Shown here piece after piece: positions 18,799-60,925 of a stretch of DNA of 64,000 nt (the stretch's first letter is position 1; every line of letters starts with the position of its first letter). Made by a program: the position numbers and the translations under genes. Location: positions 17,613-81,612 of the forward strand of contig CAZVQU010000003.1 in the NCBI GenBank assembly GCA_964629655.1, in the 5' to 3' direction. The notes beneath the pieces were generated by a model. The model saw only the letters and a program-made list of their open reading frames with translations. It ran no database searches and was not told where the DNA came from. This DNA comes from an uncultured Planctomycetia bacterium. GTDB taxonomy: Bacteria; Omnitrophota; Gorgyraeia; Duberdicusellales; 4484-171.

Positions 18799-18963
18799 TG
18801 ATTTATACTAGCATACAATAATATTAGAGGCAAATGAAAAATCTATTCAAACTTCTTGCAAACTTACAGGAGAATTATAGAATGCATCTAAGGAGGAAGG
18901 AGGCCTGTGGTTTTTGGTAAAGTAGTTAAATCTAAGGCTAAGAAAAAGAGGAAAAATAAACCC

Positions 18964-18991
18964 TTGACAAATGATACCAAACTGGTATCAT
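18964..18991 (+). promoter_or_regulatory. Promoter TTGACA-16-TATCAT with embedded palindromic operator GATACCA-aac-TGGTATC (copy 1)
   Basis: cccTTGACAaatGATACCAaacTGGTATCATc. Near-identical copy at 25028-25055. Probable TSS about 18998, so the GT2 gene (ATG 19001) would be leaderless. Confidence 0.45.
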
Positions 18992-19000
18992 CTCTACAAG

Positions 19001-19672
19001 ATGATTTCCTGCATAATTCCTGTTTATAACGAAGAAAAGCTGATAGGGAGGACTCTTGATAATCTTTCTAGGTTTGAGGGCCTTGAAATCATTGTCGTCG
19101 ATGGCGGTAGCAGCGATCGCTCTCGCGATATTATCAATAGCCACCCAGTAACTTTAATTTCTTCTCCCAAGGGACGATCACATCAGATGAATGCTGGTGC
19201 CGGAGTAGCCAAAGGTAACATCTTATTATTTTTACACGCAGATTGCATTCTTGAGCCGGATGCCCTAGGGGCAGTAAACGAGGCGATTAGTCAGGGGTCA
19301 GTAGGAGGATGCTTTATCCACAAAATAAATGGGAAGGGCATCTTATATCGCAGCATTGAACTTTCCGGGAATATCCGTACAAAAATTTCAAAGGTATTTT
19401 ATGGCGATCAAGGTATATTCGTCAGCAAGGATGCTTTTTCAAAAATTGGCGGTTTTGATAGTGTGGTTTTATTTGAAGATGTTATTTTTTCCCGGAAGCT
19501 TAAAAAAGTAGGTAAAGTTTGTGTATTAAATAGTAAAGTTTATGCTGAGCCCAGGCGGTGGAAGACCCAAGGTATAGTAAAAGCTACGCTAATAAATTGG
19601 CTAGTAACGATAGGGTTTATCTTTGGTATTCCTACAAAAATATTAAGTAAAGTCTATTGCGATATTCGATAA
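19001..19672 (+). CDS. Family-2 glycosyltransferase (TIGR04283-like)
   Basis: MISCIIPVYNEEKLIGRTLDNL...IIVVDGGSSDRS, GT-A fold with DxD-like motif. Start moved to ATG 19001 because track ATG 18971 lies inside the operator palindrome. Confidence 0.7.
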   Translation: MISCIIPVYNEEKLIGRTLDNLSRFEGLEIIVVDGGSSDRSRDIINSHPVTLISSPKGRSHQMNAGAGVAKGNILLFLHADCILEPDALGAVNEAISQGSVGGCFIHKINGKGILYRSIELSGNIRTKISKVFYGDQGIFVSKDAFSKIGGFDSVVLFEDVIFSRKLKKVGKVCVLNSKVYAEPRRWKTQGIVKATLINWLVTIGFIFGIPTKILSKVYCDIR

Positions 19673-19731
19673 GTAGGGATATTATTTTAGTGGTACAGGC
19701 AAGAGGTTATTAATGATGGTAACCGAGGAGG

Positions 19732-20226
19732 TTGACAATGATGCCCACACCAGAAGAAATTCGTGACATGGAGCATAAACATATAAATTTAAGTTATAAT
19801 AAGATTGAAGAATTAATTTATGCCGGAAACAATATGTGTTGTCAAACTCATTTTGAAAAGGAGTTGTTATCTAAAGGTATCACTGTCGATATATCCTTGG
19901 AGCTGGAAAAATTTGATAACCCTAAAGGGGTAAAATATTTTTTTTGGTTTCCTTGGAAGGAGGATACAGCCCCGAGTGAGGAGTTAATAGAAATTGGTTT
20001 AAAAACTGTCGATAATTTAATTGAAAAAAATATTAAAATGTATATTCATTGTAAGAATGGGCATGGGAGGACTACCACATTTTTAGCGGCATATTTTATT
20101 AAGACCAAAGGCGTAACGGCAGACGAAGCGCTTAAGTTAGTGACGGAGAAGAGGCCATCTATGCATCTCAATGAAACCCAGATATCTTTTTTAAGAGAAT
20201 TTGAAAGAATTGGGAAGGTTTCATGA
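19732..20226 (+). CDS. Dual-specificity / protein-tyrosine phosphatase-like protein (HCxxGxxRT P-loop)
   Basis: IHCKNGHGRTTTFLAAYF = HCX5R(S/T) signature. Confidence 0.6.
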   Translation: MTMMPTPEEIRDMEHKHINLSYNKIEELIYAGNNMCCQTHFEKELLSKGITVDISLELEKFDNPKGVKYFFWFPWKEDTAPSEELIEIGLKTVDNLIEKNIKMYIHCKNGHGRTTTFLAAYFIKTKGVTADEALKLVTEKRPSMHLNETQISFLREFERIGKVS

Positions 20227-21647
20227 AATATGATTATGACTTGGTTGTAATCGGCGGTGGTGCCGGGGGGCTGTTTGCTGCCAGTGTTGCCAATACTTTG
20301 GGAGCTAAAACCTGCCTTATCGAGAAGAAACGCTTAGGCGGTGATTGTACCTGGTTTGGCTGTATGCCTTCAAAAGCAATTTTAAAGTCGGCAAGTTTGG
20401 TGAGGTTGCTTAAAAGGTCTTCTGGCTTTGGTTTAGGGGTTGATTACAAGATAGATGCCTCAGGAGTTATGAATCATGTTAGGGATGTTGTTAGGGAAAT
20501 TTCGACACATCATCCGATAGAGCTATTAGAGAAGAGAGGAATAACCGTTATAATTGGCCAGCCACATTTTATTGGTAAGGATTCATTAGAAGTTAATAGC
20601 AAGATAATAAGAGCCAAGAAATTTATTATTTGTACCGGCTCACATCCAGTTATCCCTCCGATTGATGGTTTAGCTGAGATAAATTATCTAACTAATGAGA
20701 ATATTTTTGACTTAAAGGAGCTTCCAAAGAGCTTGATTGTTTTAGGTGGCGGTCCTATTGGTGTCGAGCTATCGCAGGCTTTAGGTCGCTTAGGTGTCAA
20801 GGTTTCAATTGTTGAGATGGTCGATAAGCTTTTGTTTCATGAAGAAGCAGAGGCTAGTCTTATATTGGAGGAAGCATTAAAATCCGAGGGCTTAAGTATT
20901 TTTACCGGAAAAAAAGCAGTTAAGTTTAGCAAGAAAGAGAATAAAGTTTTTGTAACTTTGCAGGATAAGGGCAATAGGAGGAAAGAGATATCTGCGGATA
21001 ACGTATTGGTTGCTGTAGGCAGGGCAGCAAATCTAGAAGGCCTTATGCTTGAGGTAGCTGGAGTAGAATACACCAACAAGGGTATTAAAGTTAATGCTTA
21101 TTTGCGGGCGAAAAACCCCAATATACTTGCCTGCGGAGATATCGTCGGGCCTTATATGTTTAGCCACGTTGCGGCTTATCAGGCTAGCGTATGCGTACGC
21201 AATGCTTTATTTAGAAGAATAGCTTGGCAGAAGGTCAGCTATGATAATATTGCCTGGGCTACATTTACTGATCCTGAAGTAGCTCATCTGGGGCTGAGTG
21301 AAGAAGAGGCCAGGGGTAAGTTTAAAAATATAAAAATATATAAGACTGACTATAGCGCTTGTGACCGGGCAATAACAGATTCTGAAAAGAAAGGTTTAGT
21401 TAAGATCATTACCAATAAAAAAGGATATATTCTAGGCGCTAATATTGTTGGTGCTAATGCCGGTGAAATAATCCAGGGTTTGCTTATTGCAAAATCTCTA
21501 AAGCAGCCATTAGCAAGGATTGCCTCGGTATTATTTATTTATCCTACTCTCTCGGAATTAATCAAAAAGACTGCGGCAAAAAGTTTGGTTGAGAAGATTA
21601 GTAATCCTTTTATTAAGTTTGTTTTGAAAGTGTTGAGGAAGAGTTAA
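20223..21647 (+). CDS. Pyridine nucleotide-disulfide oxidoreductase (dihydrolipoamide dehydrogenase / mercuric reductase family)
   Basis: N-terminal FAD site DLVVIGGGAGG, redox-active GGDCTWFGCMPSK, NAD site VLGGGPIGVE, C-terminal dimerisation domain. 4-nt overlap with upstream gene. Confidence 0.75.
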   Translation: MKYDYDLVVIGGGAGGLFAASVANTLGAKTCLIEKKRLGGDCTWFGCMPSKAILKSASLVRLLKRSSGFGLGVDYKIDASGVMNHVRDVVREISTHHPIELLEKRGITVIIGQPHFIGKDSLEVNSKIIRAKKFIICTGSHPVIPPIDGLAEINYLTNENIFDLKELPKSLIVLGGGPIGVELSQALGRLGVKVSIVEMVDKLLFHEEAEASLILEEALKSEGLSIFTGKKAVKFSKKENKVFVTLQDKGNRRKEISADNVLVAVGRAANLEGLMLEVAGVEYTNKGIKVNAYLRAKNPNILACGDIVGPYMFSHVAAYQASVCVRNALFRRIAWQKVSYDNIAWATFTDPEVAHLGLSEEEARGKFKNIKIYKTDYSACDRAITDSEKKGLVKIITNKKGYILGANIVGANAGEIIQGLLIAKSLKQPLARIASVLFIYPTLSELIKKTAAKSLVEKISNPFIKFVLKVLRKS

Positions 21648-21658
21648 GGAGAGCCTTA

Positions 21659-22321
21659 GTGAAGTTTTTAAAAAGCCCTTGGTTTAAGGTTTTATTTATC
21701 GTTTCCATTATCGGAGCAGTGTTTTTTATCCTACGCTTCCTTGGCATTAACTTCTCAGGAGTCAGCGCTGAGGAGGTTAAAGCTTGGGTTGAATCCTTGG
21801 GTTTCTGGGGACCGGCGATTTACATTATTGCTTATGTCTTTCGTCCTTTAGTTTTGCTGCCGGCTGCCATATTTTCAGCATCAGCGGGTGTAATTTGGGG
21901 CTTAAAGGGATTTATTTATGTTCAAATCGGAGCTAATATATCTGCTGTTGCTGAGTTTTTGATAGCCCGTTACTTTGCCCGTGAATTAGTTGAGAAATAT
22001 TTAAAGGGTAAAATTTCCCGGGTTGACGAGAGCATTGAAAAGCATGGTTTTTTAACTGTTTTATTAGTGAGGCTTATCCCTAATCTACCCTGGGACGTCC
22101 AAAACCTAAGTCTAGGCTTAACTAAGGTAAGGTTTAGAGATTACTTTTTTGCAACTCTGATTGGGATTATGCCGGCATCGTTTGCTTTAGTCTACGGCGG
22201 CGATGCTATTATAAAGGTATTAACTGATCCTAAGAATTTTTGGATGATTATCCTTGCGGTATTAATCTTTATCGGTGTATTTTTTCTCCAGAAGTATTTA
22301 AAGCGTAAAAATACAAAATGA
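21659..22321 (+). CDS. DedA / TVP38-TMEM64 family membrane protein
   Basis: VLLVRLIPNLPWDVQNLSLGLTKVRFRDYFFATLIGIMPASF is the DedA/SNARE-associated signature. GTG start with RBS. Confidence 0.7.
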   Translation: MKFLKSPWFKVLFIVSIIGAVFFILRFLGINFSGVSAEEVKAWVESLGFWGPAIYIIAYVFRPLVLLPAAIFSASAGVIWGLKGFIYVQIGANISAVAEFLIARYFARELVEKYLKGKISRVDESIEKHGFLTVLLVRLIPNLPWDVQNLSLGLTKVRFRDYFFATLIGIMPASFALVYGGDAIIKVLTDPKNFWMIILAVLIFIGVFFLQKYLKRKNTK

Positions 22322-22336
22322 ATGAGGAGGTCTTGA

Positions 22337-24388
22337 ATGCATGCTTTTTTAAGTCTTCTAGAAAAACATAACGCCCAAACTTTCTTAAACCGCGGGAAGT
22401 TAACTACTCTGCAGGTTAACGTCGGCAACCTTTGTAATCAAAGTTGCCTTCATTGTCACATAGAAGCTTCTCCCCAAGGAAAAAATATTATGCCTAAGGA
22501 GATAATCAATGATGTTCTAAAATTCCTTCATCATCATGAGATTAAGACCTTAGATATAACCGGGGGTGCCCCCGAACTTAATTCTGATTTTGATTACTTT
22601 ATACGTTCGGCTCGTCCCTTAGTAGGAGAAATCATTGTTCGTTCGAATTTAACTGTATTTTTTGAGCCAGGTAAAGAATACTTGCCCCAATTCTTGAAGG
22701 AAAATAAAATTCACCTTATTTGCTCCCTGCCTTGCTATGCCCGGGATAATGTTGATTACCAGAGAGGTAAAGGCGCTTTTGATAAGAGCGTTAAAGCCTT
22801 GAGGATACTAAACGGGTTAGGTTTTTCAAGTAAGGAAGATTTACTTCTCGACTTAGTCTACAATCCCAGAGGCCCCAATCTTCCGGCTGAGCAGGGAAAG
22901 CTTGAGAGGGATTATAAGAGTAATTTAGAGGAAAATTACCAAATAAAGTTTAACCATTTAATTACTATAACTAATGTTCCGATAAAGCGATTTAAAGATT
23001 ACTTGGAGAAAAAGGGAGAATACAAAAAATACTTTAAGCTTCTCCAAGACAATTTCAATCCTGTTATTTTGGATAATCTTATGTGCCGTAATTTCTTAAG
23101 TGTTGGTTTCAACGGCCGATTGTATGACTGCGATTTTAACCAAACTCTAGGCTTAGCCCTAAAAGACGAACTTGGAAACTTTCTTACCTTAGATAAAGTG
23201 TGCCTTAAGAATCTTGAGGGTAGGGAAATAATCCTTGGTGAGCATTGTTTATCGTGTACAGCTGGCAGCGGTTCAAGCTGTCAAGGGGCATTAACTGGAA
23301 AGAATTCCCCCAAGAAAGCGGTTAATCCTTGCTGTCTTGATGGGGAGGAAGATAAAAAGGAGAGCGTACGTGAGTATTACGGTAAAGTTTTAAAAAGCAG
23401 TAAGGATTTAAAAACCAATGCCTGCTGCAATGGGGAATCTATGCCGAAAGCTTACAGGAACGTACTAAATAAAATTGAACCGGAAATTTTAACCAAGTTT
23501 TATGGCTGCGGTTCTCCGTTACCGCCATTACTCCAAGGGTGCAGGGTTTTAGACTTAGGCTGTGGCAGTGGTCGCGATGTTTATTTGGCTTCATTTCTTG
23601 TTGGCCAAGATGGTTTTGTTATTGGAGTGGATATGACTGATCAGCAAATAGATGTAGCCACAAAATATAAAGATGCCCAGATGAGGGCGTTTGGGTTTAA
23701 AAAGAACAATGTTGATTTCAAAAAAGGCTGTATCGAGAACTTAAAAAATCTAGGCATTGCTGATAATTCGATCGATGTTGTGATTTCCAATTGCGTAATA
23801 AATTTATCACCGGATAAGGAGAGAGTGTTTGCAGAGATTTTTAGAGTCCTAAAGCCCGGTGGTGAGCTATATTTTTCTGATGTATTCGCAGGAAGAAGAG
23901 TGCCCAAATTTCTTAAAGACGATCCCATCCTCTACGGAGAGTGCCTAGGTGGAGCCTTGTACATAGAGGATTTCAGAAGGATTTTAAGGCATTTAGGCTG
24001 TTTAGACTATAGGGTTATTTCAAAGAGTCAAATTAACTTTGACAATAAAGAACTGGAAGAAAAATCCGGTATGATTAGTTTTTATTCAATGACTATAAGG
24101 GCCTTTAAGTTGAAAAAGCTAGAGGATATTTGTGAGGATTACGGACAGATGGTGACATATCTGGGGACAATCTCTGACTCAATCCACAAATTTGTCCTTG
24201 ACGATCATCATACTTTTGTTTCTGGAAAACCAGAACTTGTTTGCGGCAATACTGCCTCTATGTTGTCTAAAACACGCTACGCCAATCACTTTAAAGTGAT
24301 TGGAAACAGAACTACTCACTATGGCCCTTTTAATTGTGGGCCGCTCTCAGAAAAATCTCAGGATTCTTTTGGTGGGAGGTGTTGCTAA
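22337..24388 (+). CDS. Fusion protein: ArsS-like radical SAM/Cys-rich domain (N) + ArsM-like As(III) SAM methyltransferase (C)
   Basis: N-half: VNVGNLCNQSCLHCHIE (CxxxCxxC) plus Cys-rich tail CLSCTAGSGSSCQGA. C-half: CCNGES...YGCGSP...VLDLGCGSGRDVYLAS...DGFVIGVDMTDQQ...LKPGGELYFSD, matching ArsM motif I/post-I and conserved Cys positions. Confidence 0.7.
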   Translation: MHAFLSLLEKHNAQTFLNRGKLTTLQVNVGNLCNQSCLHCHIEASPQGKNIMPKEIINDVLKFLHHHEIKTLDITGGAPELNSDFDYFIRSARPLVGEIIVRSNLTVFFEPGKEYLPQFLKENKIHLICSLPCYARDNVDYQRGKGAFDKSVKALRILNGLGFSSKEDLLLDLVYNPRGPNLPAEQGKLERDYKSNLEENYQIKFNHLITITNVPIKRFKDYLEKKGEYKKYFKLLQDNFNPVILDNLMCRNFLSVGFNGRLYDCDFNQTLGLALKDELGNFLTLDKVCLKNLEGREIILGEHCLSCTAGSGSSCQGALTGKNSPKKAVNPCCLDGEEDKKESVREYYGKVLKSSKDLKTNACCNGESMPKAYRNVLNKIEPEILTKFYGCGSPLPPLLQGCRVLDLGCGSGRDVYLASFLVGQDGFVIGVDMTDQQIDVATKYKDAQMRAFGFKKNNVDFKKGCIENLKNLGIADNSIDVVISNCVINLSPDKERVFAEIFRVLKPGGELYFSDVFAGRRVPKFLKDDPILYGECLGGALYIEDFRRILRHLGCLDYRVISKSQINFDNKELEEKSGMISFYSMTIRAFKLKKLEDICEDYGQMVTYLGTISDSIHKFVLDDHHTFVSGKPELVCGNTASMLSKTRYANHFKVIGNRTTHYGPFNCGPLSEKSQDSFGGRCC

Positions 24389-24400
24389 GGGCAGGCAGCG

Positions 24401-25018
24401 ATGGATAAGTTGACGGGCAATGCACTTATAGTATTCCTTAAATACCCTCAACCGGGATTAGTTAAGACTCGCTTAGCAAAAGATATCGGTCCAGAATCTG
24501 CAGCTCTGCTATATAAAGAGCTAACTGAGTTAATCCTAAAGAATACCGAACCAGGTGATTACCAACGATTTTTATTTTACACACCGCAAGAGAAAAAACC
24601 TGAAATTTCAAAATGGCTAGGAGAAGATTCTAAACTTTTTCCTCAAGAAGGAGATGATTTAGGAAAAAGGCTGGCTAATGCTTTTGAGTCAGTCTTTAAC
24701 AAGGGGGTGAGTAAAGCGGTTGTTATCGGAACTGATAGCCCTTTTATTGACAGAGAGATTGTTGAGGAAGCATTCCGGCAGTTGGATAAATTCCAATGCG
24801 TTATCGGTCCGACTTGCGATGGCGGTTATTATTTGCTTGGTCTTGGTTCAGATAATGCCAAGCTATTTGAAAGCATAGATTGGAGTAGCAGTAGAGTATT
24901 TGAGCAGACAAAACAGAAGTTTAAGGATTTAGGATTAAGCTCGACTTGCCTTAGGGAAGAGTTTGACGTTGACACAAGAGCTGATTTAGACAGGTTTTTA
25001 AGAGATAAAAAAGTTTGA
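24401..25018 (+). CDS. DUF2064 / TIGR04282-family putative glycosyltransferase
   Basis: GNALIVFLKYPQPGLVKTRLAKDIG...VVIGTDSPFID...GPTCDGGYYLLGL, the DUF2064 signature. Confidence 0.65.
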   Translation: MDKLTGNALIVFLKYPQPGLVKTRLAKDIGPESAALLYKELTELILKNTEPGDYQRFLFYTPQEKKPEISKWLGEDSKLFPQEGDDLGKRLANAFESVFNKGVSKAVVIGTDSPFIDREIVEEAFRQLDKFQCVIGPTCDGGYYLLGLGSDNAKLFESIDWSSSRVFEQTKQKFKDLGLSSTCLREEFDVDTRADLDRFLRDKKV

Positions 25019-25027
25019 AATTAACCC

Positions 25028-25055
25028 TTGACAAATGATACCAATATGGTATCCT
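25028..25055 (+). promoter_or_regulatory. Promoter TTGACA-16-TATCCT with embedded palindromic operator GATACCA-ata-TGGTATC (copy 2)
   Basis: cccTTGACAaatGATACCAataTGGTATCCTt. 36/40 nt identical to 18961-19000. Confidence 0.45.
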
Positions 25056-25110
25056 TTTGGTAAGTGGAGAAACAGGGTATGGATTGGGATTGTAAAAAAA
25101 AGGGGGTGAG

Positions 25111-25188
25111 ATGAAAGTAACTATTCGATATATGATTCGTCCGGTAGTGCATTGCTCAGAGGGTTGCGCTATCAAGTCCCGGGCATGA
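25111..25188 (+). CDS. Possible 25-aa upstream/leader ORF (MKVTIRYMIRPVVHCSEGCAIKSRA)
   Basis: Strong SD GGGGGTGA 3 nt before ATG. Lies in the 5' leader between the operator-promoter and the Rrf2 gene. Contains HCxxxC. Confidence 0.2.
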   Translation: MKVTIRYMIRPVVHCSEGCAIKSRA

Positions 25189-25221
25189 CATTAAACTGCC
25201 CAAAATTAACCAAGGAGAAAG

Positions 25222-25623
25222 ATGAATTTAATTACCCGAGATGTTGACTATGCCATAAGAGCCTTATGCTGCATTGCGAAAAGAGAGGAAGGAGTCTACT
25301 CGGTTAATGAAATAGCCAAGTATTTAAAAATTCCTCGTCCTTTTTTGCGAAAAATTTTGCAAGTGTTAGGTAAAAAAAATATAGTGCATTCTTATAAAGG
25401 CAAAGGCGGAGGATTTAGATTGGCGGCTAAGCCGGGCAAGATTTCATTATTTGATATAATTACTTCGTTTCAGGGTCCGATAAGGTTAAATGATCATACT
25501 TTTAAGAGAAAAGTATGTCCTCATTTGAAGGAGTGTAATGTTAAGAAGAAACTTGATCGAGCAGAGAGAGTTATGGTTTCAGAATTAAAAGGGATCACCA
25601 TAGCGAATATTATCGAACATTAA
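25222..25623 (+). CDS. Rrf2-family transcriptional regulator (IscR/NsrR-like)
   Basis: DVDYAIRALCCIAKREEGVYSVNEIAKYLKIPRPFLRKILQVLGKKNIVHSYKGKGGGFRLA is the Rrf2 wHTH. C-terminal CPHLKEC. Confidence 0.75.
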   Translation: MNLITRDVDYAIRALCCIAKREEGVYSVNEIAKYLKIPRPFLRKILQVLGKKNIVHSYKGKGGGFRLAAKPGKISLFDIITSFQGPIRLNDHTFKRKVCPHLKECNVKKKLDRAERVMVSELKGITIANIIEH

Positions 25624-25637
25624 AAAGAAGAGTTATT

Positions 25638-26462
25638 ATGGCAAAACGTAAAATAATAAAAATTGATGAGAAGAAGTGTAACGGCTGTGGCCTTTGTGTG
25701 CCAAATTGTCCTGAGGGAGCTTTGCAGATTATTGACGGTAAGGCTCGGTTAGTCGGTGAGCTCTTGTGTGATGGCTTGGGTGCTTGTATTGGAGAATGTC
25801 CCGAAGGTGCTATTATTGTTGAGGAGCGTCAAGCCCAGGAGTACAACGAAGATAAGGTTATGGAAAATGTATCTAAGGCTGGGCCTGAGGTAATCGCAGC
25901 TCACTTAAAGCATCTTAAAGATCATGATCAGGATGATTATCTAAAACAGGCTTATGAGTACTTAAGAAAGTGCAAAATCGATATTCCCAAGGAAGAGGCA
26001 TCTGATGAATTGCCTTGTGGTTGTCCAGGTACAATGATGCGTGATTTTCGCAGTGAGAAAAAAGCTGACACAAAGGTTTCTACCGTAAGTGAGAGTTCTC
26101 AATTGCAGCAATGGCCGATACAGTTGCAGCTAGTCAGTCCAGTAGCTTCCTACTTTAAAGATGCTGATTTAGTGATTGCTGCTGACTGTGTACCTTTTTC
26201 CTACCCGAATTTTCATCAGCGGTTTTTGAAAGGTAAGGCCCTTGTAATTTTTTGCCCCAAGCTGGATACGGTATTAGATATGTATGTTGAGAAATTAACG
26301 GCAATTTTAAGGGAGAACAATATAAAATCAATAACCATTGCGCATATGGAGGTTCCTTGTTGTTTTGGCCTGGTAACTTTGGTGCAGAAGGCATTAAAAA
26401 AATCAGGGAAAAATATTATAATTAAAGAATATACAATCTCGGTTAAGGGTGAGCTCGTATAG
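25638..26462 (+). CDS. 4Fe-4S dicluster ferredoxin-domain protein with Cys-containing C-terminal domain
   Basis: CNGCGLCVPNCPEG...CDGLGACIGECPEG, two CxxCxxCxxxCP motifs. C-terminal PCGCPG...FCPKLD...PCCFGL. Confidence 0.55.
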   Translation: MAKRKIIKIDEKKCNGCGLCVPNCPEGALQIIDGKARLVGELLCDGLGACIGECPEGAIIVEERQAQEYNEDKVMENVSKAGPEVIAAHLKHLKDHDQDDYLKQAYEYLRKCKIDIPKEEASDELPCGCPGTMMRDFRSEKKADTKVSTVSESSQLQQWPIQLQLVSPVASYFKDADLVIAADCVPFSYPNFHQRFLKGKALVIFCPKLDTVLDMYVEKLTAILRENNIKSITIAHMEVPCCFGLVTLVQKALKKSGKNIIIKEYTISVKGELV

Positions 26463-26486
26463 TCTTTTTAAAGAAAGGAGTGGGTT

Positions 26487-27011
26487 ATGGATAAAAGCTT
26501 AGAGAAAGTGATGAATGAGCAATTAACAAAGGAGCTTTACTCAGCATATCTGTATCTTTCAATGGCTGCTTATTTTGAATCTGAGAATCTATCCGGATTC
26601 AGTCATTGGATGAAAATGCAGGTTCAGGAAGAGGTTCTGCATGCAATGAAAATCTTTGACTTCTTAAGTGGACGCGGCAGCAGAGTTGTTTTAGAGGCGA
26701 TAGATAAACCCTTGGCAAAATTCTCCTCGATTAAGGATGTTTTTGAGAAGACTTTAAAGCATGAGAAAAAAGTTACTGCAAGTATAAATGATTTGTATGC
26801 TCTAGCTAAGAAAGTTAACGATAGAGCCTCTTGCGTTTTTCTGCAGTGGTTTATTACTGAGCAGGTTGAGGAGGAAAAGAATCCTGCAGATATCTTGGGT
26901 AAGCTAAAGTATGTTAGCGATCAACCGGCAGGCATATTAATACTTGATAAAGAGCTGGCTACCCGTCGGCAACCGGTTTTAGATCCCGGCACGGAAGCAG
27001 CTGGTGCTTAG
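26487..27011 (+). CDS. Ferritin (non-haem, Ftn-like)
   Basis: MNEQLTKELYSAYLYLSMAAYFE...MKMQVQEEVLHAMKIFDFL ferroxidase-centre pattern. Confidence 0.8.
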   Translation: MDKSLEKVMNEQLTKELYSAYLYLSMAAYFESENLSGFSHWMKMQVQEEVLHAMKIFDFLSGRGSRVVLEAIDKPLAKFSSIKDVFEKTLKHEKKVTASINDLYALAKKVNDRASCVFLQWFITEQVEEEKNPADILGKLKYVSDQPAGILILDKELATRRQPVLDPGTEAAGA

Positions 27012-27049
27012 ATTGTGAAGGGATAGTTTCGCCTAAGTAAGGAGGTATA

Positions 27050-27184
27050 ATGACTATGCGAAAGAAAAAAAAGGCAAAATCAATGGTATGCGTAATTTGT
27101 AAAGGAGATAAGAAAGTCCAGGGTAAAAAGAAGTGTTGTTCTCCCGGAATGACTTCAAAGAAAAAGGGTAGCTGGAACCTTTAG
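27050..27184 (+). CDS. Small basic Cys-rich peptide (44 aa)
   Basis: MTMRKKKKAKSMVCVICKGDKKVQGKKKCCSPGMTSKKKGSWNL. SD AAGGAGG immediately upstream. Unlisted in track (<60 aa). Confidence 0.3.
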   Translation: MTMRKKKKAKSMVCVICKGDKKVQGKKKCCSPGMTSKKKGSWNL

Positions 27185-27231
27185 GAGCTATTTTTTAAAA
27201 GTTTGCTATTAGAAAAAGGAGAGTTATAAGT

Positions 27232-28878
27232 ATGTTTTGTTATCAATGCCAGGAAACGATTAAAAATACAGGGTGTACAAAAATTGGTGCTTGCGGAAAG
27301 GCTGAGCCGATAGCGAATTTACAAGATTTATTAGTATATGTTTTAAAAGGCCTATCTATCGTTGGAATTAAAACAAAAGATAAAGGTACTTTAGATAAAA
27401 AATATGGACGATTTATTTCCAAGGCTTTATTTGCAACAATAACTAATGCTAATTTTGACGATGCTAGAATAATTAGCTTAATTAAAGAGGCAATTATCTT
27501 AAGGGATGAGTTAAAAAGTAATTGTGAGACATGTAGTAGTGGTGAGGTTCATGATTCGGTAAGCTGGGGAGCAGACAGGGAAGAAGAATTTATTGAAAAA
27601 GCTAAACATATTGGAGTTCTATCTACTGAGAATGAAGATACTAGGTCATTAAGAGAGCTTCTTATTTATGGGGCAAAAGGAATAGCCGCATATGCTGATC
27701 ATGCAGCTGTTCTAGGTAAAGAAAATGACTTGATTTATGATTTCTTAATCGGGGCATTAGAGTCTACTACAGGAGATTTGTCAGTAGATGAGATGGTCGC
27801 TTTAGTCTTAAAAGCCGGGGAGTTTGCAGTTACTACTATGGCTTTGTTAGATGAAGCTAATACTGCCGCCTACGGTAATCCTGAGATAACTAAAGTTAAT
27901 ATCGGGGTCAGAAGTAATCCTGGCATACTTATCTCCGGACATGATCTTAAAGATATGGAAATATTGCTCAAGCAAACTGAAGGTGCTGGTGTGGATGTTT
28001 ATACCCATTCTGAGATGCTACCGGCAAATTACTATCCAAAATTTAAGAACTATGAGCATTTTGTAGGAAATTATGGCAATTCTTGGTGGAAGCAGCAAGT
28101 TGAGTTTGAGTCTTTCAACGGTCCGATTTTAATGACTACAAATTGTATTACTCCGGTTAAAGATTCTTACAAAGACAGGATTTTTACTACCGGTATGGCA
28201 GGTTATCCGGGAGTCAAACACATACCTGATTGCAATAATGGTCAGGGAAAAGATTTTTCAGAAATAATTGAATTGGCAAAACGATGCCAACCACCAAAAC
28301 AAATTGAAACCGGAGAAATAGTCGGTGGTTTTGCCCACAATCAGGTGCTTTCTTTGGCTGAGAAGGTGGTAGAGGCAATTAAGACAGGAGCAATAAAACA
28401 GTTTATCGTTATGGCTGGTTGCGATGGTCGAGGAGCTTCGAGAAGCTATTTCACCGAGGTTGCTGAAAAGTTACCTAAAGACACAGTAATTCTCACAGCC
28501 GGTTGTGCTAAGTATCGTTATAACAAACTGAGCCTTGGTGATATTGGCGGTATTCCCCGAGTACTTGATGCCGGACAGTGTAATGATTCTTATTCTTTAG
28601 CAGTTGTAGCCTTAAAATTAAAAGAAGTTTTTGGCATGAAGGATATCAATGAGTTGCCAATTTCCTTTGACATCGCCTGGTATGAGCAAAAAGCAGTAGC
28701 AGTTCTTCTGGCCCTTTTATCTTTGGGGGTAAAGGGAATCAGGTTAGGCCCAACACTGCCGGCATTTCTCTCCCCCAATGTGTTAAATGTTTTGGTTGAG
28801 AAGTTTGATATTAAACCGATTGCAGACGCCAAGAGTGATGTTAGCACAATGGTCAAAGGAGCAGGGGTGGCAAAATAA
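27232..28878 (+). CDS. hcp: Hydroxylamine reductase / hybrid-cluster protein
   Basis: [24 protein letters not shown]-terminal Cys motif and full-length (548 aa) Hcp architecture. Confidence 0.9.
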
Positions 28879-28888
28879 GTTTATCACA

Positions 28889-29599
28889 ATGAAGGAAACT
28901 CGGGTAACATTTAGCGAAAGGATAAAGAGAACTGCCACCATTGAGAGTTTTCGATTTAGGCCTGAAGAGAAAATAGATTTTTTACCTGGACAATTCCTTC
29001 AACTTATCTTTGATCAAGAAAATAGGAATAACTCCGATCTAAATAAATACCTTTCTTTTTCCTCAGCTCCCGATAAGGAGTGCTTTGAAGTAACTAAAAG
29101 AATGTCTGGTAGTGAATTCTCTCAAGCCCTAGCTAAGCTAAAAACAGGTGATAGATTTTTGATCAAGGCTCCGATGGGAAATTGTATTTTCAAAGATGAA
29201 TATAAAAAAATCGGATTTCTGGTTGGCGGAATTGGTATAACCCCGGTTATTTCAATACTAGAATATATTACAGGCAAAAATCTTGATACTGACGTCTGTT
29301 TGTTGTATTCTAATAGAACTGAGGAAGAAATAGCTTTTAAGGATGAGATCGATAGCTGGAGCCAGCAAAACCCAAATATTAATCCGGTATATGCCATTAC
29401 TAATTGCGCGCCGAAAGATAGGAAGTGTTTTTTCGGGACAATCGATGGACAATTCTTAATTGATAATATTTGTGATCCTAAGCAGCGAATTTTCTTTATT
29501 TTTGGACCACCAAACATGGTAGCATCGATGAAAAATATTTGTCTTGAAATTGGCTGCGTTAACGATATGGTAAAAGTAGAGAATTTTATTGGTTATTAA
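28889..29599 (+). CDS. FAD/NAD(P)-binding oxidoreductase (ferredoxin-NADP reductase-like; possible Hcp reductase partner)
   Basis: RFRPEEKIDFLPGQFLQL (FAD site) and GFLVGGIGITPVISIL (NAD site). Start set to ATG 28889 after hcp stop. Track start 28787 overlaps hcp. Confidence 0.6.
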   Translation: MKETRVTFSERIKRTATIESFRFRPEEKIDFLPGQFLQLIFDQENRNNSDLNKYLSFSSAPDKECFEVTKRMSGSEFSQALAKLKTGDRFLIKAPMGNCIFKDEYKKIGFLVGGIGITPVISILEYITGKNLDTDVCLLYSNRTEEEIAFKDEIDSWSQQNPNINPVYAITNCAPKDRKCFFGTIDGQFLIDNICDPKQRIFFIFGPPNMVASMKNICLEIGCVNDMVKVENFIGY

Positions 29600-29610
29600 G
29601 GAGGTAAGAG

Positions 29611-29751
29611 GTGAAAAAGTATATATGCATGGTTTGTCAGTACATTTATGATCCGTCTGAAAATGACAATATTGAATTTGCTCATCTGCCTGACGATTGG
29701 GTTTGCCCTGAGTGTGGAGTGGGGAAAGATCAGTTTGAGGAGGTTGAATAG
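29611..29751 (+). CDS. Rubredoxin
   Basis: (M)[14 protein letters not shown]...[16 protein letters not shown], canonical CxxC...CPxC rubredoxin. GTG start after AAGGAGG. Not in ORF track (46 aa). Confidence 0.8.
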
Positions 29752-29765
29752 GGGGGTTGATCTAA

Positions 29766-30926
29766 ATGAAGGCAGTTGAGATCAAAAAAAATATTTATTG
29801 GGTAGGAGGCATCGACCAGGGTTTAAAAGACTTTCATGGCTATTTAACCCAACGCGGAAGCACTTACAATGCCTACTTAATTATTGATGAAAAAATAGTA
29901 CTCGTTGATACGGTCAAGCACTATCTTTATGATGAGATGCTGGCCAGAATAAAAAGTGTCATAGATCCGGCTAAAATCGATTACATTATATCTAATCATA
30001 CCGAGATGGATCACTCCGGATGCTTGCCAAAGATTACCAAGGTTGCCAGCAAAGCCACAGTAATAGCTTCCCCTAATGGCCAGAAGGGATTAAAAAAGCA
30101 CTTTGAAGAAGAATTTATTTTTAAGATTGTTAATAGCGGTGATTCAATTAATATTGGTAAAAGAAATCTACAATTTGTGCTTACTCCCATGGTTCACTGG
30201 CCAGATTCTATGGTCACCTGCGTCCGGGAAGATAAGTTACTGCTTTCTAACGATGCTTTTGGCCAACATATTGCTTCTCGGGAGCGCTTTGATGATGAGC
30301 TTGGTTTAGATATAGCTATGCAAGAAGCTACTAAATATTACGCTAATATAGTTCTTCCCTTTGGGGTGCAAGTTAAAAAAGCTCTAGAAGCTTTATCGGG
30401 ATTGGAAATTGACATGATTGGCCCTAGTCATGGTATTATTTGGCGCAAATATATAAGTGAAATCATTAAGAAATATAAAAGTTGGGCCGATAATACCATT
30501 GCAGAAAAAGCTGTAGTCGTTTATGATACAATGTGGGGTTCGACCGAAAGGATAGCTAAGACAATTTCTAATGTTTTTATCAATAAAGGTATTCCAACAG
30601 AACTCTTAAATCTTAAAAAAACCCATATCTCCGATATCATGAGTCAAATTTTGACTGCTAAGTATATTTGCGTTGGCTCACCGACATTGAATAATACTAC
30701 ACTTCCTACTGTGGCAGCGTTTTTAAATTATATGCAGGGGCTTGGGCCTAAAAATAGAATTGGCTTGAGTTTTGGTTCATATGGCTGGGGTGGCCAAAGC
30801 ATTGGCCAGATGCAAGAAGTTTTAGAGACTTGTCGATTCCAATTATTAGATAGTATAAAAGTGCAGTATGTGCCGAACAAAGAGGTTTTGGCTGAGATAA
30901 CAAGTAAATTAGAGAAGGCTATCTAA
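29766..30926 (+). CDS. Flavodiiron protein (metallo-beta-lactamase + flavodoxin domains; O2/NO reductase)
   Basis: HTEMDHSG di-iron motif in N-terminal MBL domain. C-terminal flavodoxin-like VVVYDTMWGSTERIA. Confidence 0.85.
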   Translation: MKAVEIKKNIYWVGGIDQGLKDFHGYLTQRGSTYNAYLIIDEKIVLVDTVKHYLYDEMLARIKSVIDPAKIDYIISNHTEMDHSGCLPKITKVASKATVIASPNGQKGLKKHFEEEFIFKIVNSGDSINIGKRNLQFVLTPMVHWPDSMVTCVREDKLLLSNDAFGQHIASRERFDDELGLDIAMQEATKYYANIVLPFGVQVKKALEALSGLEIDMIGPSHGIIWRKYISEIIKKYKSWADNTIAEKAVVVYDTMWGSTERIAKTISNVFINKGIPTELLNLKKTHISDIMSQILTAKYICVGSPTLNNTTLPTVAAFLNYMQGLGPKNRIGLSFGSYGWGGQSIGQMQEVLETCRFQLLDSIKVQYVPNKEVLAEITSKLEKAI

Positions 30927-30964
30927 GGTTGGATGATAGAGGTTATAGTTTATAGAAGGAGGTA

Positions 30965-31543
30965 TTGATGAAGAGCGTAAAAGGAACGAAAACTGAGAAA
31001 AATCTATTAGCTTCTTTTGCTGGAGAGTCACAAGCCAGGAATCGCTACACTTATTTCGCCTCAGTTGCCAAAAAATCAGGCTATGAGCAGATATCAGCTA
31101 TATTCCTGGAAACAGCTGATAATGAGAAAGAACATGCTAAGAGATTTTTTAAATTCTTAGAGGGCGGCGAGGTTGAGATTGCTGCCGCTTATCCGGCAGG
31201 AGTTATTGGAAATACACTTGCTAATTTAGAGGCTGCTGCGGCCGGAGAATATTTAGAGTGGACCAAGCTTTACAAGGAGGCTGAAAATATTGCCAGAGAA
31301 GAGGGCTTTGAGCAAGTTGCTGACTTATTTAAAGAAATTGCCGGGGTAGAAGTCGAACACGAGAAGAGATACCGTAAGCTAATTGAAAATATAAAAGAAG
31401 GCAAGGTATTTGAAAGGGATGTAGTGGTCAAGTGGAAATGTCGCAATTGTGGATATGTTCATGAGGGTAAAGTTGCCCCTGAAGAGTGTCCAGCCTGCGC
31501 GCATCCGCAGAGTTTCTATGAGTTACTTTGTGAGAATTATTAA
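30965..31543 (+). CDS. Rubrerythrin
   Basis: Ferritin-like ExxH pairs (NEKEHAKRF, VEVEHEKRY) plus C-terminal rubredoxin-like WKCRNCGY...CPACAHP. Confidence 0.85.
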   Translation: MMKSVKGTKTEKNLLASFAGESQARNRYTYFASVAKKSGYEQISAIFLETADNEKEHAKRFFKFLEGGEVEIAAAYPAGVIGNTLANLEAAAAGEYLEWTKLYKEAENIAREEGFEQVADLFKEIAGVEVEHEKRYRKLIENIKEGKVFERDVVVKWKCRNCGYVHEGKVAPEECPACAHPQSFYELLCENY

Positions 31544-31573
31544 TGAGATTTTAGTCGAATTAAGGAGGTAGTT

Positions 31574-32017
31574 ATGAAGGGGCATGTCTGTAAGGTCTGT
31601 GGGTTCATATCTATAAAAGGAAACGCGCCTGATAATTGTCCGGTTTGTGGTGCCCCAAAGGCATCTTTTCTGGAGAAAGACGACGCTATAAAAGCTCCCC
31701 AAGATCCAAGCAATCTAAGCGAATTGGAAAAAAAACATATTCCAAGCATTACTGTTGTTAAAAAGTGCGGATTAATTCCTGAAGGTTGTCAGGATGTGCA
31801 TGTTAAAGTAGGCCAAATCCAGCATCCGATGAGCCCTGAACATTATATACAGCATATCGATTTTTACATTGATAAGGAATTTATAGCAAGGGTACACTTA
31901 AGTCCCGAGAAACTTAATCCGGCAGTAGCACTTCATCTTAAAGACGGTGCAGGCAAGCTTACTGCCGTAGAATTCTGTACTGTGCATGGAGTTTGGGTTA
32001 GTGAGGCAGATTTGTAA
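31574..32017 (+). CDS. Superoxide reductase (desulfoferrodoxin-like; N-terminal CxxC...CxxC domain + SOR domain)
   Basis: CKVCGF...CPVCG N-domain. SOR ligands EKKHIP, HPMSPEHYIQH, CTVHGVW. Confidence 0.75.
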   Translation: MKGHVCKVCGFISIKGNAPDNCPVCGAPKASFLEKDDAIKAPQDPSNLSELEKKHIPSITVVKKCGLIPEGCQDVHVKVGQIQHPMSPEHYIQHIDFYIDKEFIARVHLSPEKLNPAVALHLKDGAGKLTAVEFCTVHGVWVSEADL

Positions 32018-32035
32018 TTTAACAAAGGGAGTGTA

Positions 32036-32524
32036 ATGAGAAATACTTTTAATCCTCAGGAGATAGTAAAGATTGCAATTAACATTGAGGAGAATGGCAA
32101 AAAGCTTTATCAGGATCTAGAAGCTAAGGCTAAAGATAACAAGCTAAGGGAAGTGTGGAAGTATTTAGGAGAGCAGGAAGAGATTCATCGCCAGATCTTT
32201 CAAGAGATGCTTGATAATATCGGAGAGTATATTGTTTATGAGTTTAGCCCTGGTGAGTATGAAGCTTACTTGAGGGCTATTGCTACTGAGTATATCTTTA
32301 CTCAGGAGGTAATTAGCGGGAAGGTAAAGGATGGCTTTCGCAGTGATCTTGAAGCTGTTGAGTTCGGTATATTCGTAGAAAAGGAGTCAATTCTTACTTA
32401 TTTGGCCTTGCGTGAATATGTGTTGACCGGCAAGCAGGCAGTATTGGATAAGGTTATTAATCAGGAGAAGAAACATCTGAGCGATCTTACTGGTTTAAAG
32501 AATTTTTTAAAGAAGGAGGATTAA
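32036..32524 (+). CDS. Ferritin-like / rubrerythrin-family di-iron domain protein
   Basis: 162 aa. Predicted four-helix bundle with E...ExxH-like spacing (EQEEIHRQ, EKKHLSD). Confidence 0.45.
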   Translation: MRNTFNPQEIVKIAINIEENGKKLYQDLEAKAKDNKLREVWKYLGEQEEIHRQIFQEMLDNIGEYIVYEFSPGEYEAYLRAIATEYIFTQEVISGKVKDGFRSDLEAVEFGIFVEKESILTYLALREYVLTGKQAVLDKVINQEKKHLSDLTGLKNFLKKED

Positions 32525-32525
32525 G

Positions 32526-32756
32526 ATGGAGGTGAAAGTCTACTCAACACCAACTTGCCCCTATTGCACGATGGTAAAAAAGTACCTCTCTTCTAAAGGA
32601 GTTTCTTTCCAAAACATAGATGTTTCTGCAGATCAAACCGCCGGTGAGGAGATGGTAAAAATTTCCGGGCAAATGGGGGTGCCAGTGGTTGTCGCCGGTG
32701 AGGAGATTATTGTTGGCTTTGACAAAGGAGCAATAAACAAGGCTTTGAACCTATAA
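32526..32756 (+). CDS. Glutaredoxin-like protein (NrdH/Grx, CPYC)
   Basis: VKVYSTPTCPYCTMVKKYL thioredoxin-fold active site. Confidence 0.7.
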   Translation: MEVKVYSTPTCPYCTMVKKYLSSKGVSFQNIDVSADQTAGEEMVKISGQMGVPVVVAGEEIIVGFDKGAINKALNL

Positions 32757-32758
32757 CT

Positions 32759-33928
32759 GTGATGACAAAAGATCCGATATGTGGGATGTCAGTCAGCGAG
32801 AAGTCTGCCTTTCAATTGTCTTGGGCTGGTGAAAACTTTTACTTTTGCAGTAAGCATTGCCTTGAGAAATTCACTGAAAAAACAAAGACTAACAGCAGCG
32901 AAATTGATGTCTGCCCAATTGTCCCGAAAGTTCCACTTTATAAGAATAAAACCTTTATTGTTGCTATAGTTCTGGCAGGATTAATTCTGCTTTCCTATTC
33001 CCTACCATTCTTAGTACCGCTTCGAAAGTCACTTATCATCTATTTTAAAGCAATCTGGTGGGCTATACTTTTAGGGTTGGCCCTTGGCGGAGCAATGGAG
33101 CACTATATACCAAAAGAATATATTACTCATATTTTATCAAAACCAAAGAAGCGGACTATTTTTTACTCAGTAATTTTAGGTTTTTTTATGAGTGTATGCT
33201 CTCACGGCATCCTTGCTCTTTCAATAGAGTTACACAAAAAAGGTGCTTCTAACCCGGCAGTGGTAAGCTTTTTGCTTGCTAGTCCTTGGGCCAATTTAAT
33301 CCTTACTGTGCTGTTGGTAGGATTTTTTGGCTTAAAAGCCCTATTTATCATATTCTCAGCTATTGTAATAGCAATAATAACTGGGTTTATCTTTCAATTT
33401 CTAGAGAGAAAGAAGCTCATCGAAACCAACGAGAATATTATAGAGATAGAAGATAATTTTTCCATTATCAAGGATATGAAGAGGAGATTTAAGACACGAC
33501 GCTGGTCTCTTAAGGGGTTCGGAGAGGATATTAAGGGAGTTTTTAACGGTGCAGTGGCCTTGAGCAATATGGTGCTTTGGTGGGTATTAATAGGTATGGG
33601 GTTAGCTGGTTTAGCTGGGGCTTACATCCCGGCTACTATATTTGCTGACTATATGGGCCCAACTATTCTAGGTCTTTTTGTTACTCTTTTGGTGGCTACA
33701 GTAATTGAGGTTTGTTCTGAGGGCTCAGCTCCGATGGCTTTTGAGATATTTAGACAGACCGGTGCCCTAGGAAATAGTTTTGTTTTTCTTATGGCTGGGG
33801 TAGTTACTGACTATACTGAGATAGGGTTGCTATGGCATAATGTTGGTAAGCGGGTAGCCATTTGGTTGCCGATTGTAACTGTTCCCCAAGTGATTATTTT
33901 AGGCATCATTGCTAATATTTTATTTTAA
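32759..33928 (+). CDS. YHS/TRASH metal-binding domain fused to DUF318-type permease (ArsP-like)
   Basis: N-terminal DPICGMSV...FYFCSKHC (YHS). Two DUF318 repeats each with a CS.G/H motif (FMSVCSHGIL, VIEVCSEGSAPMA). About 8 TM. Confidence 0.6.
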   Translation: MMTKDPICGMSVSEKSAFQLSWAGENFYFCSKHCLEKFTEKTKTNSSEIDVCPIVPKVPLYKNKTFIVAIVLAGLILLSYSLPFLVPLRKSLIIYFKAIWWAILLGLALGGAMEHYIPKEYITHILSKPKKRTIFYSVILGFFMSVCSHGILALSIELHKKGASNPAVVSFLLASPWANLILTVLLVGFFGLKALFIIFSAIVIAIITGFIFQFLERKKLIETNENIIEIEDNFSIIKDMKRRFKTRRWSLKGFGEDIKGVFNGAVALSNMVLWWVLIGMGLAGLAGAYIPATIFADYMGPTILGLFVTLLVATVIEVCSEGSAPMAFEIFRQTGALGNSFVFLMAGVVTDYTEIGLLWHNVGKRVAIWLPIVTVPQVIILGIIANILF

Positions 33929-33957
33929 TTAGAGTATAATTTAGAGAAGGATAAACC

Positions 33958-60911: not shown

Positions 60912-60925
60912 AGGAAAATTGAGAT

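Follow-up and report, generated by a model that had tools for sequence, protein, structure and literature searches.

A perfect palindrome set inside a near-consensus promoter occurs twice in a 64,000-nt stretch of DNA from an uncultured bacterium assigned to the Omnitrophota (assembly GCA_964629655.1, contig CAZVQU010000003.1, positions 17,613 to 81,612 of the forward strand; this whole stretch is called the window below). One copy (P1/O1) stands at the head of a six-gene arsenosugar-like operon and the other (P2/O2) at the head of a stress-gene array whose regulator belongs to the Rrf2 family, and the same module of -35 box, palindrome and -10 box is conserved upstream of orthologues of this regulator in several phyla. 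We propose, with a probability of about 0.8, that each copy is a sigma-70-type promoter carrying a palindromic Rrf2 operator in its spacer and -10 box, and that Rrf2 would repress it until oxidants or nitric oxide (NO) release the protein from the DNA.

The two copies read AACCC-TTGACA-AAT-GATACCA-AAC-TGGTATC-AT for P1/O1, with the -35 box TTGACA at 18964-18969, GATACCAAACTGGTATC at 18973-18989 and a TG-extended -10 box, TATCAT, at 18986-18991, and AACCC-TTGACA-AAT-GATACCA-ATA-TGGTATC-CT for P2/O2, with TTGACA at 25028-25033, GATACCAATATGGTATC (GATACCA-ATA-TGGTATC) at 25037-25053 and a TG-extended TATCCT at 25050-25055. The exact blocks that they have in common are the 22-mer AACCCTTGACAAATGATACCAA, starting at 18959 and 25023, and TGGTATC. 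An earlier note on this DNA had given an identity of 36/40 between 18961-19000 and 25025-25064, which we measured at 32/40; its account of a -35 box just 5' of an inverted repeat, with the -10 box overlapping the 3' arm, is borne out by both copies. The 7-N3-7 inverted repeat that it described is likewise present in both, but in copy 1 the repeat is longer, 9-3-9 (ATGATACCA-AAC-TGGTATCAT, 18971-18991). As the note had also claimed, GATACCA-N3-TGGTATC occurs only twice, at 18973-18989 and 25037-25053, when the 64-kb window is searched with up to two mismatches allowed; shuffled sequences give an expectation of 0.16 matches, and 2/100 shuffles reached two. A promoter scan of 18.7-27.3 kb ranked copy 1 first (11/12 plus TG) and copy 2 joint second (10/12 plus TG), and at both copies the -35 and -10 boxes are 16 nt apart, the palindrome reaching from the spacer into the -10 box.

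The module was followed across genomes in two ways, led by the protein and led by the DNA. In the protein-led test, an alignment of 26 homologues yielded 80 loci (designated by L numbers) from species-representative genomes, in which Rrf2 is 50-77% identical to that of the window; the hosts are Omnitrophota, Atribacterota, Actinomycetota, Clostridia, Auribacterota and metagenome-assembled genomes labelled Planctomycetia. A perfect GATAC-N7-GTATC lies within 400 nt upstream of the Rrf2 gene in 55 of these 80 loci and a one-mismatch version in 5 more, and in 9 further loci a perfect site lies 0.5-7.8 kb upstream, where it heads a same-strand string of genes that includes Rrf2. Composite sites, in which the core is accompanied by TTGACA, number 78 in 0.94 Mb, for which we estimate from the motif probability far fewer than one by chance. 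All but 4 are in the Rrf2 orientation; these 4 are minus-strand readings of palindromic sites, 3 of which were also scored on the plus strand. The family consensus is TTGACA-(3/4)-AATGATAC-N7-GTATCATT.

In the DNA-led test, metagenome contigs were scanned for TTGACA-N(3,4)-GATAC-N7-GTATCAT, which returned at least 120 stretches. Among the matches listed, 89 sites had at least 700 nt of downstream sequence, and an orthologue of the window Rrf2 lay within 700 nt downstream of 68 of them; most of the remaining sites among these matches were chance-like, with GC-rich centres, or stood ahead of other stress genes. A logo of 196 unique sites reads tTTGACA-(3 or 4 nt)-AAT-GATAC-tAatATg-GTATC-ATTa, in which the -35 and -10 hexamers are conserved together with the palindrome and the T-G at centre positions 10-11 is an extended -10 element. 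The AAT and ATT flanks occupy positions that the searches left unconstrained, and with them the palindrome becomes 8-7-8, a usual size for an Rrf2 operator. The repressor-operator layout suggested by the earlier note is thus conserved as one module, palindrome with both promoter boxes, across several phyla, and its prediction that the co-transcribed Rrf2 binds the site and controls its own synthesis is favoured by the position of the site before Rrf2 in 55 + 5 of the 80 genome loci and in 68/89 metagenome contexts among the matches listed.

The regulator itself, a protein of 133 aa, scores 112.8 bits against PF02082 (cut-off 30; residues 4-132) and 103.9 against TIGR00738 (cut-off 73.3). It had been placed in the IscR/NsrR family; the membership in PF02082 holds, but the protein falls far below the cut-offs for both named regulators, with 48.8 against 207.55 bits for the IscR equivalog TIGR02010, 23.9 against 275 for PRK10857 and 52.5 against 182 for the NsrR equivalog NF008240, and the NCBIfam cut-offs for RirA, CymR and HypR were not reached either. 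Going by these scores, the window Rrf2 is a separate subfamily. The closest solved structures are Thermincola potens IscR (4CIC, E=7e-13), RsrR (6HSD/6Y45, ~5e-10) and NsrR (8e-9). The recognition-helix segment P38-x-PFLRK-xx-Q47 is invariant in the 26 aligned homologues, as are D9, C99 and C105, and C16 is nearly so. C99 and C105 form a C-x5-C motif, the sole invariant cysteine pair, and the position about 7 residues upstream, H92 in the window protein, is Cys in a few of the homologues. Because D9, H92 (Cys), C99 and C105 fit an Asp/His(Cys)/Cys/Cys ligand set, a role as an Fe-S sensor is plausible. As a control we used an Rrf2 paralogue in L209 that is 36% identical and carries the helix IPLIFLRRILQ, as against IPRPFLRKILQ; this paralogue heads a similar Fer4-Hcp string, and a GATAC-N7-GTATC site, looked for there, is absent. 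A separate observation concerns L064, in which Rrf2 (900-1301) is only 54% identical to that of the window and the neighbouring genes compared (polyprenyl synthetase, Fer4, rubrerythrin, desulfoferrodoxin, glutaredoxin, ArsP, thioredoxin reductase and ACR3) are 66-94% identical, and the operator is retained. The regulator may thus have been replaced by another allele or have evolved fast.

The genes found behind the sites are mainly those for Rrf2, the Fer4/AF_0155 protein, Hcp, an FNR-like reductase, rubredoxin, flavodiiron protein, desulfoferrodoxin and rubrerythrin, and further ferritin, glutaredoxin, thioredoxin reductase, a PNPOx-like protein, Tpx and an Ogg-type glycosylase. Their predicted common theme is defence against O2, reactive oxygen species (ROS) and NO, together with Fe-S repair. 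The hcp gene is present in the window operon and in 18/89 metagenome site contexts among the matches listed, and there is no hmp. Separate sites precede iscS-iscU in L009 (5947) and L041 (5973), just upstream of the Rrf2 operon; an extra site precedes an iscS homologue in L071 (12143), where iscS alone is annotated, and in L130 iscS-iscU follow Rrf2 behind a single site. As these sites precede iscS-iscU, the regulon includes Fe-S cluster assembly in some genomes, as with IscR. In L010 (1599), L045 (1886), L057 (1618), L087, L193 and L204 the first gene after the operator encodes a small protein (~90-110 aa) whose N-terminal part includes a hydrophobic stretch and which carries a CPVMGG...CCAGC motif, YHS/TRASH-like by eye.

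Copy 1 connects this module to the arsenosugar-like operon, in which TIGR04167, TIGR04283 and TIGR04282 all score above their NCBIfam cut-offs (Table 1); the methyltransferase domain fused to the radical-SAM protein falls short of the ArsM models, with 197.9 against 263 bits (PRK11873) and 107.1 against 400 (AsSugarArsM), and "arsenosugar" is here a name given by homology only. Besides the window, the site precedes such an operon in L207, a close relative (83-87% protein identity) in which both sites are conserved, and in L042, a distant member of the Omnitrophota with the order site, micro-open reading frame (micro-ORF), GT2, DUF2064, DedA, MerA-like protein, ArsS/M, second site, Fer4, ferritin, rubredoxin and Rrf2. 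The operon of L038 has no site in its own upstream region, although it abuts an Rrf2 site; no site was found upstream of the operon in six more arsenosugar-like loci (L208-L213), and 0/121 metagenome sites among the matches listed precede arsenosugar-like genes. L038 and L208-L213 rule out the idea that arsenosugar-like operons generally carry the site. With the site in three loci, and seven loci and the metagenome sites without such an arrangement, the link is real but lineage-specific; the co-regulation of arsenosugar-like and stress genes put forward in the earlier note is accordingly supported for the window, L207 and L042 and fails as a general feature of the regulon.

Several of the site-less clusters lie among redox-stress genes. 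AhpC and DJ-1/PfpI lie near those of L208 and L210, and flavin reductases near that of L211; the L208 cluster is also near MsrAB, a Cu-SOD-domain protein, hemerythrin and a thioredoxin reductase-like protein, and the L213 cluster near rubrerythrin, glutaredoxin and a thioredoxin reductase-like protein. In L209 and L038 the arsenosugar-like cluster adjoins an Rrf2-Fer4-Hcp string. This gene neighbourhood suggests a wider functional association of the arsenosugar-like cluster with redox stress.

The origin of copy 1 can be read from the closest relatives without the operon, L007 (Rrf2 77% identical) and L064, in which a polyprenyl synthetase gene (minus strand), one site and Rrf2 follow each other. 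Sites orthologous to P2 occupy the same position upstream of Rrf2 in L007, L064 and L207. The AAATTAA(C/T)CC flank of copy 2 is also found at the site of L007 and L064, which makes copy 2 the ancestral one. The unusual AACCC flank recurs at copy 1, at a position where the family consensus is T-rich. Most likely, judging from these flanks and gene orders, copy 1 arose by local duplication of the promoter when the operon was inserted beside the ancestral one, and the near-identity of the copies most likely reflects this duplication and not only selection on the operator. It could be asked whether the copies are then a mere scar, left as direct repeats on either side of the inserted 6-kb operon and without a regulatory role, as the operon-less arrangement in L007 and L064 and the AACCC flank common to both window copies would allow. 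However, the module is conserved in front of Rrf2 across phyla and is therefore functional, P1/O1 of the window is 100% conserved in L207 amid non-coding bases that diverge on both sides, and L042 independently has a site before an arsenosugar-like operon. We regard the scar as the least probable of the readings considered here; duplication explains the source of copy 1 and is no argument against its function.

Several points weigh against the proposal that Rrf2 represses from these sites. The 80 genome loci were chosen through Rrf2, and adjacency alone could equally reflect another regulator of an Rrf2-led stress operon, a concern that the DNA-led scan lessens but does not remove. Only two cysteines can be aligned with the motif of three Cys found in IscR and NsrR, and an Fe-S cluster is thus not assured. 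The -10 box of copy 2 (TATCCT) is weakened, and this copy begins 6 nt past the DUF2064 stop codon, where read-through from P1 and an effect of an RNA hairpin may come into play. The site is present at 3/10 sampled arsenosugar-like loci, which come from two lineages.

The first of these points bears on the alternative that the palindrome is the operator of another regulator, of the PerR/Fur type or another redox regulator encoded elsewhere, and that Rrf2 is merely the usual first gene of the regulated operon. The targets would suit such a regulator, rubrerythrin, desulfoferrodoxin, flavodiiron protein and rubredoxin being PerR targets in clostridia and Desulfovibrio. But the DNA-led scan, which did not start from the protein, has Rrf2 close behind most of its sites among the matches listed; GATAC-N7-GTATC is not a 7-1-7 Fur/PerR box; an invariant recognition helix matches invariant half-sites, and the L209 paralogue with another helix is without the site; and no other DNA-binding protein is recurrent in the loci examined, which for the metagenome part are those among the matches listed. 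We consider another regulator unlikely.

Rrf2 might also bind the site and activate, or act in both directions as IscR does at suf. The apo form of IscR activates some promoters, and since the -35 and -10 boxes are conserved with the site, co-binding with polymerase is conceivable. Against this, the site covers the spacer and -10 box of a promoter (11/12, extended TG, 16-17 nt spacer) that is already near-consensus and needs no activator; the spacer is not of the over-long MerR type (19-20 nt), and activator sites normally lie at or upstream of the -35 box. Activation or dual control seems to us a little more unlikely again than a different regulator.

The palindrome could, finally, act at the RNA level, as a hairpin of 7-9 bp that terminates or attenuates transcripts from the upstream operon. 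Copy 2 was flagged as terminator-like, its hairpin being followed by CUUUUGG just past the DUF2064 stop, and 46-nt RNAs of the copies fold at -15.0 and -12.6 kcal/mol (z = -3.7 and -4.3). As an intrinsic terminator, however, copy 2 is marginal (7-bp stem, 3 GC pairs, CUUUUGG), and copy 1 has neither a U-run nor an upstream gene on the same strand. Most genomes have a divergent or unrelated gene before the site, TTGACA always stands at a fixed distance from it, and the bases after the hairpin are the conserved continuation of the -10 region, ATT(A/T), instead of a U-tract. Since transcription is predicted to start beyond the palindrome, RNA made from this promoter would not contain the hairpin. 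An RNA-level role is, in our judgement, very unlikely.

We therefore retain repression by Rrf2, and from the observations above we infer its physical binding, repression rather than activation, the inducing signal and the transcription start sites. In the proposed mechanism, a dimeric Rrf2 in its DNA-binding form, with an Fe-S (or thiol) sensor, would occupy the -10 box and spacer and obstruct RNA polymerase; damage to the sensor by oxidants or NO would make the protein leave the operator. This would derepress its own operon, comprising the micro-ORF, Rrf2, the Fer4 protein, ferritin, Hcp, flavodiiron protein, rubrerythrins, desulfoferrodoxin, glutaredoxin and thioredoxin reductase, and, through the duplicated P1/O1, the six-gene arsenosugar-like operon as well, with GT2 translated from a leaderless or nearly leaderless messenger RNA (mRNA).

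Table 1. Positions of the promoter-operator copies and of the genes behind them, numbered from the first letter of the window.
Feature	Position	Strand	Remarks
Promoter-operator copy 1 (P1/O1)	18959..18994	+	Palindrome between -35 and -10; scan of the window
Six-gene arsenosugar-like operon	19001..25018	+	Behind P1; Pfam/NCBIfam
GT2 TIGR04283 glycosyltransferase	19001-19672	+	228.1 bits against a cut-off of 182
Genes 2-4 of the operon: dual-specificity phosphatase, MerA-like flavoprotein disulfide reductase, DedA/VTT		+	
ArsS radical-SAM protein fused to a methyltransferase	22337-24388	+	TIGR04167, 407.8 against a cut-off of 300
TIGR04282/DUF2064	24401-25018	+	198.1 against a cut-off of 134
Promoter-operator copy 2 (P2/O2)	25023..25058	+	Palindrome between -35 and -10
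Conserved micro-ORF, MKVTIRYMIRPVVHCSEGCAIKSRA	25111..25188	+	First cistron after P2; 48 distinct versions
Rrf2-family regulator, 133 aa	25222..25623	+	PF02082, E=1.7e-32; predicted binder of both operators
Core stress genes	25638..34863	+	Behind P2; Pfam/NCBIfam

The leaderless reading of GT2, which the earlier note had predicted, is reasonable on the positions of the starts. The predicted start site of P1 is at ~18998, the ATG at 19001 begins 9 nt past the -10 box and no Shine-Dalgarno sequence is found upstream of it; in L207 the distance is 8 nt, with different intervening bases. GT2 homologues of 223-224 aa fit the start at 19001 and not the 233-aa version of the gene caller. In at least 13 independent orthologues, the Rrf2 gene itself starts with an ATG 5-10 nt (mode 6-7) past TATCAT. 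These ATGs fall where a transcription start is expected, so the -10 assignment is independently supported, and leaderless mRNAs would accordingly be common for this promoter family.

Between P2/O2 and Rrf2 lies a conserved micro-ORF of a family of 19-27 aa with the consensus M-x-ITI(R/K)YMLRPVAHCKEGC..S(R/W)A(RR), preceded by a Shine-Dalgarno-like purine run that is mostly GGAGG. Besides the window it is carried by L007, L010, L014, L020, L027, L035, L042 (654), L045, L048, L052, L054, L057, L065, L067, L082, L086 and L207 and by ~25 metagenome loci among the matches listed. Wherever upstream sequence is available the micro-ORF is downstream of the site, usually as the first cistron, and in L042 it stands between the site and the arsenosugar-like operon. 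The third-codon positions vary freely through ...EGC, indicating that the micro-ORF is coding; gene callers miss it, and the micro-protein has no Pfam or NCBIfam match at E<=10. At its end and just beyond it, at ~25176-25201 (+), the block GTCC(C/T)GGG(C/T)A-NGA-CNN-TAAACTGCC shows conservation of the nucleotides themselves: Ser is almost always encoded by TCC, R/W and A/V alternate by C/T transitions only, NGA reads as a stop, Arg or Gly, and in-frame stops sometimes occur upstream of the block. No credible RNA family was found by Rfam in the whole window at the gathering threshold or in 24900-25400 at E<=10, and RNAalifold on 42 sequences of the micro-ORF region gave a negligible consensus structure (-2.0 kcal/mol). 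An apparent covariation at pair 71-90 of this region was discarded, as it equals the expectation for independent columns.

Pfam and NCBIfam confirmed the earlier gene calls for both operons. Behind Rrf2, the core string runs through the Fer4/AF_0155 protein, ferritin, Hcp, FNR-like reductase, rubredoxin, flavodiiron protein, rubrerythrin, desulfoferrodoxin, a second rubrerythrin, glutaredoxin, an ArsP/YHS permease and thioredoxin reductase, and same-strand genes continue to ~39899 with PNPOx, an ArsC-type low-molecular-weight phosphatase, IMPase, GDT1, Na/H-EIIA and a split ACR3. A terminator and promoter scan of 27-42 kb, bearing on a putative transcript of 14.7 kb, gave no convincing internal signal, its result being no better than that of shuffles. 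The stress gene set of the window is also found behind the site in related loci. The Fer4/AF_0155 protein (274 aa, 25638-26462, +), with a 4Fe-4S dicluster and an AF_0155 domain, follows Rrf2 in most loci, is present in 44/89 assessable metagenome site contexts among the matches listed and may be a functional partner of Rrf2. Two ORFs on the plus strand, 38811-39197 (128 aa) and 39261-39899 (212 aa), make up the ACR3/SBF-type arsenite carrier; the split may be due to a frameshift or mark a pseudogene.

Some further reading frames and matches in the window were set aside. The minus-strand ORFs 18938-19144 and 24951-25175 are artefacts that overlap real genes of the plus strand, in agreement with the earlier note, but the string that they share is only WYHLSRV, from VWYHLSRV and YWYHLSRV, not the full YWYHLSRV. 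A 40-codon ORF with a GTG start, 18907-19029 (+), follows a strong Shine-Dalgarno sequence, AAGGAGGAAGGAGG, crosses operator copy 1 to end 26 nt inside GT2. In L207 the sequence is one base shorter, which fuses the corresponding ORF in frame with GT2 in a 254-aa gene call; the frame is not kept between the window and L207, and the ORF is therefore probably no real gene. The purine-rich stretch before it is conserved. A third GATAC-N7-GTATC, at 62139-62155 (+; GATACAAACAAAGTATC-ATT), is without a -35 box and lies inside an 814-aa ORF (60926-63370), and we judge this match to be due to chance. That ORF and an adjacent one of 840 aa (together 58389-63370, +) look, from their translations alone, like the helicase/restriction and fused methylase-specificity subunits of a type I restriction-modification system.

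Among characterized regulators, NsrR, the [4Fe-4S] NO-sensing Rrf2 repressor of hmp and hcp in E. coli, Bacillus and Streptomyces, has the same PF02082 winged-helix fold, a palindromic operator overlapping the core promoter and hcp among its targets, and D9 and the C-x5-C pair of the window protein align with NsrR ligands. It differs in that the first Cys of the triad is His in the window Rrf2 (Cys in a few homologues), in that there is no hmp here and the regulon consists mostly of O2/ROS defence genes, and in its operator, which is of the 11-1-11 AAxATGCATTT type, unlike GATAC-N7-GTATC. IscR resembles the window regulator in being autoregulated, as predicted here, and in providing the best solved-structure match; its cluster ligands (Cys92, Cys98, Cys104 and His107 in E. 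coli numbering) appear to form a different pattern, the window motif is unlike its type 1 and type 2 sites, and the window operon has no isc genes. RsrR of Streptomyces venezuelae, the second-best structure match, binds a [2Fe-2S] cluster by Cys, His and Glu, and mixed His/Cys ligation is plausible in the window Rrf2 too; RsrR likewise has an inverted repeat with a short central spacer as its site. RsrR is, however, of low sequence similarity, with another motif sequence and other target genes. The gene content is closest in kind to PerR regulons: in Clostridium and Desulfovibrio PerR is an autoregulated repressor of rubrerythrin, desulfoferrodoxin, flavodiiron protein, rubredoxin and other O2/ROS defence genes. 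PerR belongs to the Fur family and has a 7-1-7 box, so that both the protein family and the palindrome differ, and the relation is one of analogy, not homology.

A Lachnospiraceae Rrf2 of unassigned specificity, UniRef50_C0FN14, lies beside flavodiiron protein, rubrerythrin and thioredoxin genes and is proposed, in the accessible part of the preprint PMC13404960, to sense ROS and reactive nitrogen species through an Fe-S cluster. As described there it is set apart from the window Rrf2 by having all three Cys and belonging to another clade, and that part of the text reports no operator for it. Our literature search found no description of the GATAC-N7-GTATC motif or of the subfamily of the window Rrf2; in the accessible part of Rodionov 2005, only NsrR is found, not this motif or subfamily. 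The arrangement is thus of a known type, in which an Rrf2 repressor controls its own gene through a palindromic operator set within the promoter, and what appears to be new is the operator motif and the subfamily, both absent from the literature searched.

More broadly, and only as a tentative suggestion, the module may represent a previously undescribed O2/NO-stress regulon spanning several phyla of uncultivated anaerobes (Omnitrophota, Atribacterota and others) that replaces PerR functionally, often together with a His/Cys micro-protein of 25-27 aa and leaderless mRNAs, and in which the arsenosugar cluster would be induced by redox stress and not specifically by arsenic. Apart from this suggestion, the operator consensus, its predicted regulator and the target genes make up a concrete code, open to testing, for the control of oxidative and nitrosative defence in phyla of which hardly any members have been cultured, and the regulon becomes readable directly from metagenome-assembled genomes. 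The comparison of close relatives with and without the inserted operon catches the growth of a regulon by promoter-operator duplication. The analysis also brings to light a conserved micro-protein missed by gene callers and ties the widespread, functionally obscure radical-SAM/TIGR04282/TIGR04283 arsenosugar cluster to redox stress.

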